From: a virus
Lineage: Duplodnaviria > Caudoviricetes
IMG/VR virus record: IMGVR_UViG_3300008255_000261
Location: 1 to 36,648 of that record
Strand: one strand, 5' to 3'
DNA length: 36,648 bases
Made by a program: the position numbers and the translations under genes. Below are positions 12,096-23,768 of the stretch, in pieces. Every line of letters starts with the position of its first letter. The first letter of the stretch is position 1. Below the pieces are notes generated by a model that worked only from the letters and a program-made list of their open reading frames with translations, was not told where the DNA came from and made no database searches.

Positions 12096-12169
12096 TGCGA
12101 GATAGAGCAGATTGGTAGCTCGTTGGGTTCATAACCCAAAGGTCATTGGTTCAAGTCCAATTCTCGCTA
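12096..12169 (+). tRNA. tRNA-Met(CAT), initiator (fMet) type
   Basis: Cloverleaf: acceptor TGCGAGA/TCTCGCT with 1:72 mismatch, D stem GAGC/GCTC (A11-U24), anticodon stem TTGGG/CCCAA with three G-C pairs, anticodon CAT, T arm ATTGG-TTCAAGT-CCAAT; CCA not encoded. Confidence 0.95.
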
Positions 12170-12198
12170 CAAACCAATTATTAAATTTTTAACTACAT

Positions 12199-13923: not shown

Positions 13924-15087
13924 ATGGCTGATTTTTCATTAACGACATTATTTGTCGTGCCAGTAGGACAGACTGCTCTTCCTAGCTCTGGTTCAACGCA
14001 AGATTTAACTGCGGGTCAAGTGGGTATTTTTAAAAACGATTATGTTCTTGCAACAGCAGGTAACATAGCTGCTGCCCCTTATTTCTACATTGCCCAAGGT
14101 AGAGATAATACTTTTTTACAGGGGTCTAAACGTTCTGATAAAATTTCAGGTTCTTTAAATTCTGGAACTAGTAATATTATAGAATGGTATAAAGTGAGTG
14201 GATGTAACACTCCTGTAAATCAAGTTACAGATGTAAGTGGATTTAGTATTCAATGTGGAGAAATTTTAACATTAACACTTAGAGCCCATTCAAGTTATAT
14301 TGATACGTTATATTTTAATGGATTGACAAGATCTGTAACAGTACAAGCTCCTTGTTGTGAGTGTGGTGCTGATCCATGTACAGATGTAGATGTTCCAACT
14401 TTAATTGATGCATTAATTGTAAAATTAACTCAAGCTGCTTCAGGTAATAACCCAGATAATGTTATTTTATCAGATTTCTTCCAATTTCAAAGAATTGGTA
14501 ATGATGCAGATGCAATTTTACGTATATCTGGAAAACCATTAACAGCATATGGACAACCATGTGATGTTGCTGCTTTCCCATTTGCATATGATAGAATGTG
14601 GTTTAGAACATTTGTTTATGAAGGTCCTGAAACCACTGCTGATTTTATTGTTTCTGATGCTTGTAATATTGTTGCAAATAGTCAAGTTACACAACGTTCT
14701 TCTTACGCAACAGGAACTGCTGCTGAAATAGCACAATTAGAGAAAAATTTCTATAGCTATCAAGCTGGTTATTTGAAGCATTTATATAGAATGAATGGTT
14801 ATAATGGAAACTTTGAATCTCAAGTAGATGCATCTAGTACATATGATACCTTCTATATTAAATTTGGAGATTATGATAAAAATGGCCAAAATTGGAGTGA
14901 TTATGTAAGTGGAGATAGCACAGTTATAATTGCTGCTGTTGCTGGAGGAGCTGCTTCTACAGCTATTGAAGCTGTATTAGAAGCTGCATTAGGAACTGTA
15001 ACAAGTACAAATAGTTGTATTACAACAACTTCTACTACAACTACTATTTGGGCAACTACTACCACAACTTCTACATTAATTCCTTAA
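13924..15087 (+). CDS. putative auxiliary capsid / structural protein with poly-Thr tail
   Basis: Ala/Gly/Thr-rich 387 aa, followed by a strong terminator; position matches the crAss auxiliary capsid gene. Confidence 0.55.
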   Translation: MADFSLTTLFVVPVGQTALPSSGSTQDLTAGQVGIFKNDYVLATAGNIAAAPYFYIAQGRDNTFLQGSKRSDKISGSLNSGTSNIIEWYKVSGCNTPVNQVTDVSGFSIQCGEILTLTLRAHSSYIDTLYFNGLTRSVTVQAPCCECGADPCTDVDVPTLIDALIVKLTQAASGNNPDNVILSDFFQFQRIGNDADAILRISGKPLTAYGQPCDVAAFPFAYDRMWFRTFVYEGPETTADFIVSDACNIVANSQVTQRSSYATGTAAEIAQLEKNFYSYQAGYLKHLYRMNGYNGNFESQVDASSTYDTFYIKFGDYDKNGQNWSDYVSGDSTVIIAAVAGGAASTAIEAVLEAALGTVTSTNSCITTTSTTTTIWATTTTTSTLIP

Positions 15088-15112
15088 TAAGAAGAGTTTT
15101 AATATAAAACCT

Positions 15113-15156
15113 ATGCCAGAGGGTGAGAGGATTCTCATAATCCTCTGGCATTTTTT
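15113..15156 (+). terminator. intrinsic terminator
   Basis: ATGCCAGAGG...CCTCTGGCAT stem followed by a T run. Confidence 0.85.
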
Positions 15157-15167
15157 ATTATAAAAAT

Positions 15168-15737
15168 ATGGCTGATTTAAATTTAAACATATTAGTAATT
15201 GATACACATGATGTACAAAAATTAGGAATTTTAGATAATTCCATATATGCATCAGTGGATCCAGGAGTAGATACACAAACAATATCTATAACACCTCCAG
15301 AATTTGATGCTGTTACATTAAGTTTTCAATATAATAATTATAATATATATAATTCTGAAGATTTAGGAATTACAGAAATTGGAGAAGATTTATGTGACTT
15401 ACCTGATGGTGTATATTATATTACATATAACAATAATACAGGTGGAACAGTTACAAGTGTAAACAAAACTATTATAAGAATAGATAAGTTACAAGAAAAA
15501 TTTGATGAAGCTTTTATGAGCCTTGATATGATTGAATGTGATGGTAAAATTAAAAAACAATCTAAAGTTCATTTAATGTCTATTTATTTTTTTATACAAG
15601 GAGCTATATCAGCAGCAAATAATTGTGCAGTGAATAAATCAAATTCATTATATAATAAAGCTGATGCTATGTTAGATAATTTCATAAAAAATGATTGTGG
15701 ATGTTCAGGTAATAACTATATAATAACATATTTCTAA
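15168..15737 (+). CDS. putative structural protein (tail hub-like)
   Basis: LPDGVYYITY beta-sandwich motif plus helical Cys-containing C-terminus; synteny. Confidence 0.5.
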   Translation: MADLNLNILVIDTHDVQKLGILDNSIYASVDPGVDTQTISITPPEFDAVTLSFQYNNYNIYNSEDLGITEIGEDLCDLPDGVYYITYNNNTGGTVTSVNKTIIRIDKLQEKFDEAFMSLDMIECDGKIKKQSKVHLMSIYFFIQGAISAANNCAVNKSNSLYNKADAMLDNFIKNDCGCSGNNYIITYF

Positions 15738-17865: not shown

Positions 17866-19413
17866 ATGACAGGATTAATAACAATAAATACAATAGGAGT
17901 AGATACAGGACCATTTAATATATATTCCAATATAGATGGATTTGTTTCTGCATTTGAAACAAATATAAATAGAACACAACTATTAGCAGGATTTTACACT
18001 GATCTTATACCAGATGGTACAGTAAAAATAAAAGTTGTAGATCTTGGGGATTGTGCTCTTTATATTGATATAATATTAGAGACTATATTATGTTATAGAT
18101 TTTTCCCAGAATTAGGATATTATTTTACAGATTATTTATACAAACCCACCACTACATATTTATATGGAACTTTTAATTCATTTGAAAATGGAGTGGATGT
18201 TATACCTTTAGGTAAAATAGTTAGACTTAATAATGATTTAACTATAGATGAAACATTTGTAACAGGTACAGGATTTGATGCTGTATTATATGATGGTTCT
18301 TCCATATTTGAACAAGCTGATGGAAAAATTATAGCAACTGGTGATTTTATTTCTTATAATGGTACTTCTGCTAATAGAATTATTAGACTTAATATAGATG
18401 GAAGTATTGATCCTAGTTTTAATTATGGAACAGGTTTTAATAACTTCACTCAAGGTGGGGCAGTAGATTCATTAGGAAGAATTATTATAACAGGAATATT
18501 TAATTTATATCAAGGAATAGTATCTAATAGAATTGTTAGACTTCTTTCAGATGGTACTAGAGACTCATCTTTTATAACAGGAGTAGGATTTGATAACACC
18601 ACTGTAGATGTTTTGATAAACCCAGATGATTCCATGTATATAACAGGGTATTTTAGCAATTATAATGGTACATCTGGATTAAATGGTATTGTTAAATTAG
18701 ATTCTGTAGGAACTATAGATCCTACATTTATAAGTGGAACAGGGTTTAATCCTTACACTGCTTCTAATCCAAATAATTTTGCAAGACTTATAGGAGAAAC
18801 TTCTTTTTATGTAGCAGGATATTTTACATCTTATAATGGAATAAGTGTCAATAGAATTATTAAATTAAATGAAAATGGTACTGTAGATGGTTCGTTTAGT
18901 TCTGGAACAGGATTTAATGCAAATGTATCCACTATAAAAGTAATTTGGAATGATAAATTAATAATTACAGGAAGTTTTACAGAATATAATGGAACAGTTT
19001 CTAATAAAACCATCATATTAAATTCAGATGGTAGTATATATTTAGCTCTTCCATTTGATACTTATCACTCCCCTTTTATAATTCAAAATACTTTATATGG
19101 AGCATTATTAGGAGAATGTTTACAACCTATTTATGAGCACACAACAACAACTTCTACAACTACATCTTTACCCCCATGGACTGAGTTCACTGTAGGAGCT
19201 TCATTTCAGGTTGCTTGTGAATCTATTCCAGAACCATTTACGTTAATATTATATCATAACGGAGAAGGAACATATCCAGTAATAGGTGATATAATTTCTG
19301 TAAGTGTAACAGGTTCTCCTGTGTATGAAACAGTTGGTGGTGTACATTATGCTCCTTTTGGAGAATTACTTACAGACTCCTCTGGAACAATGCAATTAAT
19401 TACCTGTAGATAA
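17866..19413 (+). CDS. delta-60 repeat (DUF5122-like beta-propeller) protein, candidate receptor-binding fibre
   Basis: Repeats such as QADGKIIATGDF.SYNG...NRIIRLN.DGSIDPSF..GTGFN; N-terminal GPF domain; Thr linker; Cys-bounded C-domain. Confidence 0.8.
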   Translation: MTGLITINTIGVDTGPFNIYSNIDGFVSAFETNINRTQLLAGFYTDLIPDGTVKIKVVDLGDCALYIDIILETILCYRFFPELGYYFTDYLYKPTTTYLYGTFNSFENGVDVIPLGKIVRLNNDLTIDETFVTGTGFDAVLYDGSSIFEQADGKIIATGDFISYNGTSANRIIRLNIDGSIDPSFNYGTGFNNFTQGGAVDSLGRIIITGIFNLYQGIVSNRIVRLLSDGTRDSSFITGVGFDNTTVDVLINPDDSMYITGYFSNYNGTSGLNGIVKLDSVGTIDPTFISGTGFNPYTASNPNNFARLIGETSFYVAGYFTSYNGISVNRIIKLNENGTVDGSFSSGTGFNANVSTIKVIWNDKLIITGSFTEYNGTVSNKTIILNSDGSIYLALPFDTYHSPFIIQNTLYGALLGECLQPIYEHTTTTSTTTSLPPWTEFTVGASFQVACESIPEPFTLILYHNGEGTYPVIGDIISVSVTGSPVYETVGGVHYAPFGELLTDSSGTMQLITCR

Positions 19414-21530: not shown

Positions 21531-22013
21531 ATGAGTAGAGTTAAAGTTGATTATAGATCAAATAGTAAAGAAAATTATAATGATTTTTGTAAGAAACATC
21601 CAACATTAGATTTATCATATGATATATGGAAAAAAATATTATATGAATTTAATAGTTCATTTAGAGAACATATTTTAGAAACAGGAGAAAAAATAAAATT
21701 ACCATATGGGTTTGGATCATTTTCTATAAATAAAAAGAAAAGAAGAAAGATTAAAACAAGTCCTGATGGAAAAGAATTTATAAATCTTCCTATTGATTGG
21801 AAGAAAACAAAAGAAAAAGGAAAATATATTTATAATTTTAATCATCATACAGAAGGATATTATTTTGGATGGCATTGGTTTAAAGAAACAGCAAGATTTA
21901 AATATGTAAATTTGTGGTATTTTAAACCTTCAAGAGTAACATCTCGTCTTATAACACATTATTTAAAGATTGATGATAAATATCAACATATTTATAAAGA
22001 ATATAGTAAATAA
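21531..22013 (+). CDS. IHF/HU-like protein (crAss-type)
   Basis: ILETGEKIKLPYGFGSFSINKKK and C-terminal FKPSR; basic; located before the tail genes. Confidence 0.7.
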   Translation: MSRVKVDYRSNSKENYNDFCKKHPTLDLSYDIWKKILYEFNSSFREHILETGEKIKLPYGFGSFSINKKKRRKIKTSPDGKEFINLPIDWKKTKEKGKYIYNFNHHTEGYYFGWHWFKETARFKYVNLWYFKPSRVTSRLITHYLKIDDKYQHIYKEYSK

Positions 22014-22034
22014 TAAAAATATTTTTTAAATGTT

Positions 22035-22167
22035 TTACAACGTGTTTGTGTATAAATAGTAAGGGCTAAGTATAAGCTAGTTATTCACAAAGCGATTAGA
22101 TTGTTAAATAGAAATTAATTTTAATTAGACATTGCGCCCTTATTAATTATACACGATGTTGTGTTTA
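22035..22167 (-). repeat. attC-like recombination hairpin
   Basis: Plus strand ACAAC-6nt-GTGTATAA-4nt-TAAGGGC ... GCCCTTA-4nt-TTATACAC-3nt-GTTGT; about 130 bp, bounded by AAC/GTT, about 40 nt downstream of the minus-strand ORF stop. Confidence 0.7.
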
Positions 22168-22752
22168 GTATTTTTAAAATCAAAATAATATGAGTAATAA
22201 AATTGTTAGTTGGAACCAGTGGAATAATCGTTATAAATCGAATCCTTTAAATTTTTCATCTCTTTTTTCAGATGCAATATTTCTTTTTGATTGTTTTCTG
22301 TGGTTTCTTGTAATTCTTGGAGTTGTTTGTTATACTTATTTAATATATCATCAGTTCTTTGGTTAATAAATCCAAAGTATATAGTAGATGCTACTGAAAT
22401 AGCTGTAATAATTAACATTATACGTTCAGCGTAATTAATTTTATTTGTTTTAATTGAAAGTCCAACAGGAGTGATGTTACATAACCATTCAAAATCCGAA
22501 TAATTACTATGAATATCTATATAATCTTTGTCAACCATATATTGACAAAACCATTGAGCAGTAAATGTATTAAATCCATCAAGTGCTTTTTTATTTAGAA
22601 TAACTATAGACCAAATATTTTTAAAGTTGGTGTTTGTTCCATTAGCAGGAATATAATTTAAAAGTTTACAAATAGTTTGTTTACGTAAAACTTTTAAATA
22701 CCACCATTCTTCTAGTGTCATACAATTATTTTTTTTTCAATATTAAATACAA
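22041..22752 (-). mobile_element. putative integron-type gene cassette
   Basis: Single antisense ORF flanked by a 14-bp direct repeat TACAACGTGTTTGT (22036-22049, 22748-22761); cassette start GTTGTATTTA complements the inverse core TAAACACAAC at 9 of 10 positions. Confidence 0.65.
22206..22721 (-). CDS. cassette-encoded membrane protein (N-domain, one TM helix, coiled coil)
   Basis: 171 aa, ATG start, does not overlap any plus-strand gene; TM IMLIITAISVASTIYFGFI. Confidence 0.8.
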   Translation of the reverse strand: MTLEEWWYLKVLRKQTICKLLNYIPANGTNTNFKNIWSIVILNKKALDGFNTFTAQWFCQYMVDKDYIDIHSNYSDFEWLCNITPVGLSIKTNKINYAERIMLIITAISVASTIYFGFINQRTDDILNKYNKQLQELQETTENNQKEILHLKKEMKNLKDSIYNDYSTGSN

Positions 22753-22811
22753 CGTGTTTGTATAAAATTTAGTTTTTAATTAATTTTATATATTATTATA
22801 AATAAATTATT

Positions 22812-23768
22812 ATGTCATATTATTATAAATATAATTTTGTTTCCCCTGCACCAATTTATGCAATTGTAAAAGAAGAACTTAAAAGTTATTTTGATACAGG
22901 TGCTATAGATGATTTGATGTTTCCAACATATTTAAATAAATGTTTAAATAAACTTGGAAAAACAACATATAAAGTAGTACCAACACCTTTATATGTTGAA
23001 GATTATGAAGCAAGATTACCAGATAATTTTATTTCTGTTAAAGAAGCATGGATGTGCGCAGAAGTACCATTAAATTCTTATCAAGTTGCAAGTTCTTTTT
23101 ATTCTCAAAGTGCTTCTTGTATAACAATACAAGTTAGTCCAGTTATAGTAAATGGAGAATCTTGTAATAATCCTATATGTGAAAATTCAAATTGTAATGG
23201 ATGTATGCCAGAAGTTATTCAAGCTGTTTATAAAACAAATGGAGAAATAGAACGTTCTTATATAAAACAATATTTATTAAAGCCTGGAAACATTTCAGCA
23301 AAACAAAATTGTGATGTAGGTTATTCAGAAAACTGGGCTCAATCTATTAAAGAATATAATCCATATGCTTCATCATATGATTCATTTGATATAAGAGACA
23401 ATAAATTTGTAACAAATTTTAGAAATGGTATTGTACATTTAAACTTTTATGCTGAAGATTATGATGATGATGATAATCAGTTAATTCCAGATAATTATAG
23501 AATTAGAGAATATATAGAAGCATTTATAAAATATAAAATGTTTGAAACATTGTTTAATCAAACCAATGATGAAACTTTTAATCAAATAGAAAAAAAATAT
23601 ATAATGTATAAACAAGCTGCTGATGAAGCATTTGTTTTGGCATCAACAGAAACAAAAAAACAAACTGTTTGGGAAAAACAAAGGAGAATTAAAAACACTC
23701 TTAATAGAAATAATATGTATCAACTTCCTAATTATACAAATAGTTTTAGAAGAAAGCGTAATAATTAA
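22812..23768 (+). CDS. putative tail ring / tubular adaptor protein
   Basis: ARLPDNF and IPDN..I.E.IEAFIKYK motifs; directly upstream of the muzzle gene as in crAss-like phages. Confidence 0.6.
   Translation: MSYYYKYNFVSPAPIYAIVKEELKSYFDTGAIDDLMFPTYLNKCLNKLGKTTYKVVPTPLYVEDYEARLPDNFISVKEAWMCAEVPLNSYQVASSFYSQSASCITIQVSPVIVNGESCNNPICENSNCNGCMPEVIQAVYKTNGEIERSYIKQYLLKPGNISAKQNCDVGYSENWAQSIKEYNPYASSYDSFDIRDNKFVTNFRNGIVHLNFYAEDYDDDDNQLIPDNYRIREYIEAFIKYKMFETLFNQTNDETFNQIEKKYIMYKQAADEAFVLASTETKKQTVWEKQRRIKNTLNRNNMYQLPNYTNSFRRKRNN

Follow-up and report, generated by a model that had tools for sequence, protein, structure and literature searches.

The window, by which we mean the whole stretch of 36,648 nucleotides that was analysed, is a crAss-like structural module with crAss-type capsid, ring, muzzle, portal and terminase genes. 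The crAss-like assignment was made from gene content; the Pfam matches CrAss_Ring_2, CrAss_Ring_1, crAss_MUZ and Crass_capsid agree with the crAss-like tail operon proposed in an earlier, sequence-only reading of this DNA. A tRNA-Met gene is found directly after the major capsid gene (12096-12170, plus strand), and a DUF5122 beta-propeller gene lies at 17866-19413, with internal repeats at 18344-18441 and 18821-18918. At the locus of interest the following features are arranged between two tail-region genes.

21531-22013, plus strand: flanking phage gene, HU/IHF-like, 160 aa (weak PF00216 match; 80 related loci)
22014-22038, minus strand: right part of the putative docking site, resembling a cassette 5′ end; absent from relatives (gap 0-9 nt)
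22039-22167, minus strand: attC-like folded site with a 122-nt hairpin, from inverse core to GTT
22041-22752, minus strand: gene cassette of 712 bp, from G/TT crossover to G/TT crossover (cut between the G and the TT); near-identical copies outside the phage
22206-22721, minus strand (read from 22721 to 22206): cargo ORF of 171 aa, within the 712-bp cassette
22751-22811, minus strand: left part of the putative docking site, with a 9-bp inverted repeat (22790-22782/22769-22761), a 6-nt spacer and GTT at 22753-22751; absent from relatives
22812-23768, plus strand: flanking phage gene, tail ring protein 1 (PF24228, E 2.2e-9)

In 77 of the 80 related viral loci the flanking genes are separated by 0-9 nt; here the gap is 798 nt and consists of the 712-bp cassette plus 86 nt of residue. 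The cassette is an insertion into the phage, missing from its relatives. The remaining three relatives (L038, L039 and L074) carry at the same junction a sense ORF of 639-649 nt (~215 aa), which we take from its motifs to be HNH endonuclease-like, and the junction is therefore one that tolerates insertions. None of the 80 related phage loci has a hairpin of the cassette's family. The 86-nt residue is missing from the close phage relatives, and the upstream phage junction had no exact match among the records searched, which may leave out those nearest to the window. Comparison of the insert with the INPHARED phages gave short chance matches only. No terminator was detected, and a scan for sigma-70 promoters, which does not extend to Bacteroidota promoters, remained at chance level (10 found, 10.4 expected).

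Read on its own strand, the cassette consists of one ORF and, after it, an imperfect palindrome bounded by AAC...GTT, like a canonical cassette with its attC. The GTT triplets that bound it (22753-22751 and 22041-22039) are separated by 712 bp; the leader is 31 nt long and 38 nt lie between the stop codon and the inverse core. The attC-like site proceeds from the inverse core (22167-22158) through a 3-nt spacer, an arm (22154-22136), a variable loop, the second arm (22066-22048) and a 6-nt spacer to the GTT at 22041-22039, and 17 of the 19 arm positions are paired. In the bacterial allele all 10 of 10 positions of the cassette start are complementary to the inverse core, compared with 9 of 10 in the window. 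Compared with shuffles, the bottom (plus) strand folds at z = -3.1 (1 of 200 shuffles) and the top strand at z = -1.65; a tighter 122-nt cut gives -2.1 and -1.75, respectively, and the predicted folding energies are -13.0 kcal/mol for the bottom and -10.5 kcal/mol for the top strand.

The sequence-only reading had described an integron-like unit composed of leader, ORF, hairpin and GTT ends, 712 bp in length, and every one of these elements could be located. The ORF is the sole credible antisense gene, as had been said, being the only non-nested, non-overlapping minus-strand ORF of at least 80 aa beyond 2.2 kb, and recounting the complementarity in the window gave the same 9 of 10. The departures from canonical sites that had been pointed out are real and extend beyond the window: only the AAC and GTT triplets fit RYYYAAC/GTTRRRY, the adjoining letters deviating in the window and throughout the hairpin family, and the family stem is bulge-free, so that the want of obvious canonical extrahelical bases is a family feature. 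The window holds one full hairpin site and therefore falls outside the definition of a CALIN (at least two attC, no integrase). The reported absence of an integrase from the window agrees with a negative PF00589 search of the phage contig, whose CheckV completeness is 32%.

The hairpin had also been said to resemble the repeats of flavobacterial cassette arrays, and many relatives were indeed found in Bacteroidota arrays. The family was collected from GTDB genomes with an 18-mer from the hairpin's left end, which matched at 28 places; eight of these are not full sites, the other 20 are full or contig-cut sites, and 16 of the 20 were used for model building. Eighteen of the 20 came from Bacteroidota in the wide sense; Algibacter lectus has 34 consecutive bases in common with the window. 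Across 17 aligned sites the outer stem is 18 bp long and bulge-free, with a 3-nt spacer on one side and a 6-nt spacer on the other and two conserved A.C mismatches, present as G.T when the bottom strand is folded. Both sides vary in 7 of the 21 pairs, with a covariation score of 0.304 against 0.076 for a shuffle that leaves the relatedness among sites in place and at most 0.073 for slid controls; six of the 21 pairs are fixed by the collecting 18-mer, so that the informative part is the inner stem only. A covariance model identified 14-49 sites per genome, lower bounds with 150 candidates scored per genome, as co-oriented clusters in five of five genomes; the multi-copy occurrence that had been anticipated is thus documented in each of them. 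A profile from which the window's site had been left out still recovered it (E 2.2e-6; next match E 5.9) and returned nothing under E 6 in the 80 related phage loci. A search of Rfam gave no match.

In the cargo protein a membrane helix is predicted at residues 101-119, between an N-terminal domain without an assigned family and a coiled coil at the C-terminus. It showed no Pfam match above the cut-off and no match in PADLOC or NCBIfam; sequence searches returned its own cluster, one homologue of 46% identity and an additional match (E 2.7e-4) in a 2511-aa protein, and no relatives were seen in viral contigs. Weak matches to DUF4515 and to an Rz-like spanin, and all PDB matches, are confined to the membrane helix or the coiled coil and were rejected as compositional. 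The AlphaFold model is of low confidence (pLDDT 53, two sequences in the alignment), and the look-alikes in the protein atlas are proteins without a name, mostly from Bacteroidota. In the phage the cargo is likely a silent or weakly expressed passenger.

The same ORF is present in four other metagenomic contigs (L109, L111, L112 and L113), which have nothing else in common with the phage. The 712-bp unit differs from its copies in L109, L111 and L112 at 7-8 positions (~99% identical), L113 holding only the 5′ part; in the comparison with L109 no difference falls inside the ORF, and the phage hairpin allele is distinct from both host alleles. Each of these contigs has 2-6 hairpin-family sites on the cassette's strand, and the identical ORF thus stands among such repeats outside the phage, as the sequence-only reading would have it. 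The upstream neighbour of the cassette is one in L109 and L112, another in L111, another in L113, the cassette itself in the self-junction and again another in the phage, and every switch occurs at GTT; L109 and L111 share ~2.4 kb from a GTT onward and are different before it, and in L112 the cassette is followed by its own start. This is the behaviour of a canonical cassette, a unit among changing neighbours, and the switches in the bacterial contigs support the G/TT crossover that had been claimed. The contigs also encode an Avs1b-like defence protein and a T9SS-sorted protein, the latter 39-47% identical to its nearest named relatives, from Tenacibaculum and Polaribacter; judged from this one neighbouring gene, the array-bearing contigs appear Flavobacteriaceae-like. 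In L111 (7578-14081) a 2167-aa Avs1b-like anti-phage protein is encoded immediately after a hairpin-family site. No recombinase was found in these short contigs.

Capture of the cassette by the phage from a host is well supported, the direction following from the host polarity of the cassette, the allelic variety among host copies and the absence from phage relatives. The earlier picture of a phage trafficking host cassettes is accordingly upheld as to acquisition only; delivery to another cell would be a further step.

The metagenomic reads were considered in 8 of the 24 listed runs. The cassette is ~30-40 times deeper than the phage flanks in X2 (~980 vs 25) and X1 (264 vs 7-9), depth figures that are not to be equated with copy numbers; in X8 and X12 the cassette is covered and the phage flanks are not, and in X5, X6 and X7 the cover in this part is patchy and low throughout. 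Such an excess of the host copy in X1 and X2 is what one would expect if the locus were an assembly chimera of an abundant host cassette and the phage, and the DNA itself may stem from X4 or another run, but this reading is largely refuted and highly improbable: X4 has a single contig of 1687 nt over the whole locus and both phage junctions at a uniform depth of 10 with a different allele at 22748, unitigs of X1 and X2 extend 46 and 36 nt beyond the left junction, and the phage hairpin allele is unlike either host allele. The X4 contig, which may be close to the source of this DNA but differs from the window at two places, has the host-type base at 22748 and thereby the exact predicted junction, and the 9 of 10 complement of the window is therefore a later change from 10 of 10. 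Self-junctions of the cassette occur in L112 and in loose ends of X1 and X7, and in an assembled contig they are compatible with a circle or a tandem copy alike. No joint skipping the 712 bp was seen in the eight runs; joints of 923 nt and 400 nt, with sides of 21 nt, were discarded as chance.

In five genomes, six arrays, one of them interrupted, have a co-oriented tyrosine recombinase immediately before their start. With a profile built from five of these recombinases, 106 of the 151 Flavobacteriaceae genomes that were sampled gave matches at E <= 1e-60. In 23 of the 30 best loci a hairpin site on the same strand follows within 1.5 kb downstream of the recombinase, and 27, in bacterial genomes, have an attI candidate within 220 nt of its stop, in which a short inverted repeat is followed after a few bases by GTT and a start of cassette type. 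All six aligned recombinases show a ~30-residue gap at the IntI-specific insertion of IntI1 (R388), and in five of five genomes the recombinase stays below the TIGR02249 cut-off (203-206 vs 265 bits), its best family match being NCBIfam NF040815 (204-234 bits, cut-off 220). The available parts of one report describe the insertion as essential for integron function (PMC8138268), and those of another state that strand choice depends on the extrahelical bases of attC, near the L box (PMC5027507); the absent insertion may thus go with the absent extrahelical bases. Other tyrosine recombinases are also present in the array-bearing genomes, and it is on its position that we assign the array-head enzyme as the likely catalyst of cassette insertion. 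The system acts like an integron and is yet non-canonical: the term integron-like stands, and integron in the strict sense does not, given the missing extrahelical bases, the recombinase without the IntI insertion and the 3-nt versus 6-nt spacer.

On a Chryseobacterium plasmid (L125, 7956-16657) an array of family sites lies behind the recombinase and contains a group II intron and an IS110 element. Plasmid pHH1107 (L124, 6043-8230) shows tnpF, an attI-like inverted repeat with GTT, tet(X3) and an apparent left half-hairpin; tnpF is a shorter relative of the array-head recombinase (TnpF 54% identical over 61% of the query), and the hairpin model gave no match on this region. From this arrangement, tet(X3) may originally have been a first cassette of a Bacteroidota integron-like system.

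Sites of the family are carried by other viruses as well. Two patterns matched an estimated 140 and 700 stored viral stretches in partial scans, and by a crude longest-ORF rule applied to the upstream ORF, 147 of 196 viral sites are antisense, 15 sense and 34 unassigned, versus 25 sense, 4 antisense and 7 unassigned among 36 bacterial sites. Of 49 larger site-bearing viral records, five match the window terminase; a crAss capsid was found in three of the four terminase-matching records that were tested, each with several sites and no PF00589. In the two genomes inspected (G198 and G204) the small ORFs occupy the plus strand, opposite to the sites, which lie on the minus strand. The crAss-capsid genomes G198 (C1, 3.3-7.7 kb and 82.5 kb), G204 and G197 have site arrays and no tyrosine recombinase; the ORFs are inverted in G198 and G204, several of the sites being shortened. 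A related recombinase occurs in 10 of 252 viral loci; one phage with a recombinase of its own (G177, L414 4288-6303) has an adjoining 216-aa ORF in host polarity and inverted ORFs beyond. None of the 252 viral site-bearing loci has homologues of the window's proteins within 4 kb, and no second case in this tail module was seen among them. Since phage sites face against phage transcription, a cassette of host type is likely to end up antisense.

A comparable layout was found in a cultured, virulent phage, Polaribacter phage P12002L (L415), in which a GTT-to-GTT unit of 692 bp lies on the minus strand at 14505-15197. It has host polarity, its lone antisense ORF (gp24) lies between tail-region genes, and its start complements its inverse core; further sites of this phage are on the plus strand, among minus-strand genes. 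Phage P12002S is 98.6% identical over the region. The upstream GTT of the P12002L unit is preceded by a 9-bp inverted repeat (rank 2 of 1977), with a poor attI-profile score (rank 837 of 1977).

The 86-nt residue that surrounds the cassette in the window was compared with the parts of known sites. The inverted repeat of the left part, which ends 7 nt ahead of GTT, ranks 4 of the 1266 GTTs in the window, its end ranks 2 of 1266 against a profile of attC ends that may include the cassette's own site, and the right part ranks 2 of 1266 against a profile of cassette starts. A score combining inverted repeat and cassette start, put together after the fact, places the site first of 1266; among 12,620 GTTs taken from 40 of the 80 related loci, none reaches it. 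The upstream 16 nt match the attI profile only weakly (rank 52 of 1266) and attC ends better, and this upstream profile failed for both phage sites, that of the window and that of P12002L. The residue may be a decayed docking site, derived from an attI or an attC and older than the cassette.

The same data can be read in two other ways. A piece of a host array, comprising the end of an att site, the cassette and the first 25 nt of the next cassette, could have been taken up as a block through one illegitimate recombination, the GTT junctions then being made in the host. Both residues are foreign to the phage relatives, the right one looks like a cassette start and the left one like an attC end at the ranks just given, and contigs of the eight runs, which drop rare variants, contain no empty-site allele of the phage, all of which this reading would explain. 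We nevertheless consider it unlikely: neither phage junction is present in the four host contigs, the phage-flank unitigs of X1 and X2 continue unbroken through both residues at phage depth and thus leave no place in these runs for an abundant host copy with the residues, the ~99% identity of the cassette next to a degenerate left site suggests two ages, and P12002L repeats the layout. Insertion at a chance secondary site of the attG kind, that is into phage-born AT-rich spacer or promoter DNA with a usable GTT and no maintained docking site, appears more doubtful still. It would suit the very AT-rich region, the weak attI match and the short docking-site hairpin, which folds no better than shuffles; 13 bases around the crossover match the end of the cassette's own site, and insertion by IntI1 at attG sites is reported in the available parts of PMC12901181, citing Loot 2024. 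The first rank of the combined score, unequalled in the 40 relatives, and the 9-bp inverted repeat before the upstream GTT of P12002L argue against it.

We therefore favour insertion into a putative older docking site. It is probable that in an infected cell of Flavobacteriaceae-like type the cassette was released as a circle, which an IntI-like recombinase of the host then inserted at the GTT of that site. The array-bearing bacterium would be the phage's host, and the cassette would leave its array as a circular intermediate. The IntI-like recombinase encoded at the array head would catalyse the reaction, presumably on the bottom strand in its folded form, this being the better-folding strand and the one on which A.C becomes G.T. 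Insertion would take place at the GTT of the 86-nt residue, predating the cassette, between the two tail-region genes. The antisense orientation would arise from a phage site that points against late transcription, as such sites mostly do in phages, whose own cassettes have inverted ORFs.

As a wider and tentative reading, which we regard as rather doubtful, Bacteroidota phages, crAss-like ones included, would keep docking sites against their own transcription and use a non-IntI recombinase of the host in trans. Phages and hosts would then take part in one cassette economy with two polarities, inverted cassettes being expressed by the phage and host-type cassettes being silent and able to re-enter arrays. 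If so, the locus would be a shuttle caught in the act, and the enzyme would recombine single-strand hairpins that have no bulges while itself lacking the domain regarded as essential for integrons.

The locus gives a direct view of gene movement from a host cassette library to a phage. The matched host-phage pair supplies the precise substrates that a recombination assay would need and offers a new means of assigning uncultured phages to their hosts, and P12002L, cultured and with the same layout, is available as a bench model. With close relatives of the recombinase in 106 of 151 Flavobacteriaceae genomes and arrays of dozens of sites, a major gene-shuffling system has maybe been overlooked by standard tools. 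According to the available parts of PMC9024848, integrons are almost absent from Bacteroidetes in surveys, and apart from Chlorobi and Ignavibacteriae only Salinibacter is named there as having a complete one.

Class 1 integrons and the sedentary chromosomal integrons of Vibrio share with the system described here the single ORF with an imperfect palindrome, AAC...GTT and the G/TT crossover, the cassette start complementary to the inverse core, the better folding of the bottom strand, the shuffled neighbours and the long co-oriented arrays behind a tyrosine recombinase, headed in bacterial genomes by an attI candidate. In contrast to them, the Bacteroidota hairpin has no extrahelical bases in its 18-bp outer stem and has spacers of 3 and 6 nt, and the recombinase lacks ~30 residues of the IntI insertion, falls short of the TIGR02249 cut-off and lies upstream of its array in the same orientation, whereas intI1 in R388 is divergent. 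NF040815, an XerA-like family named "site-specific tyrosine recombinase/integron integrase", and the TnpF beside tet(X3) are alike by sequence match only, and no account of either as a cassette-array recombinase was found in the literature. Searches of the literature, which covered few subscription papers, likewise found nothing on this Bacteroidota system or on a cassette in a crAss-like phage.

Insertion at attG sites resembles our case in that a cassette lands outside an integron at a GTT-bearing site, but the available parts of PMC12901181 concern IntI1 and bacterial genomes, whereas here the enzyme is another one, the target is a phage and some att-site features are present. A further precedent is the work of Qi et al. 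(2023), who reported CALINs in virulent phages, including the Bacteroidota phage P12002L (PMC9892861), and thus, as here, cassette sites in phages without an integrase. Unlike our analysis, the available parts of that paper describe calls that required at least two sites of the canonical model and tests with IntI1, and mention neither a crAss-like phage nor, for any virulent phage, a matching host copy; its supplement, as far as available, lists two oligonucleotide sites of P12002L, both different from the tail-region site described above. What is new is the matched pair of one cassette in host and phage.
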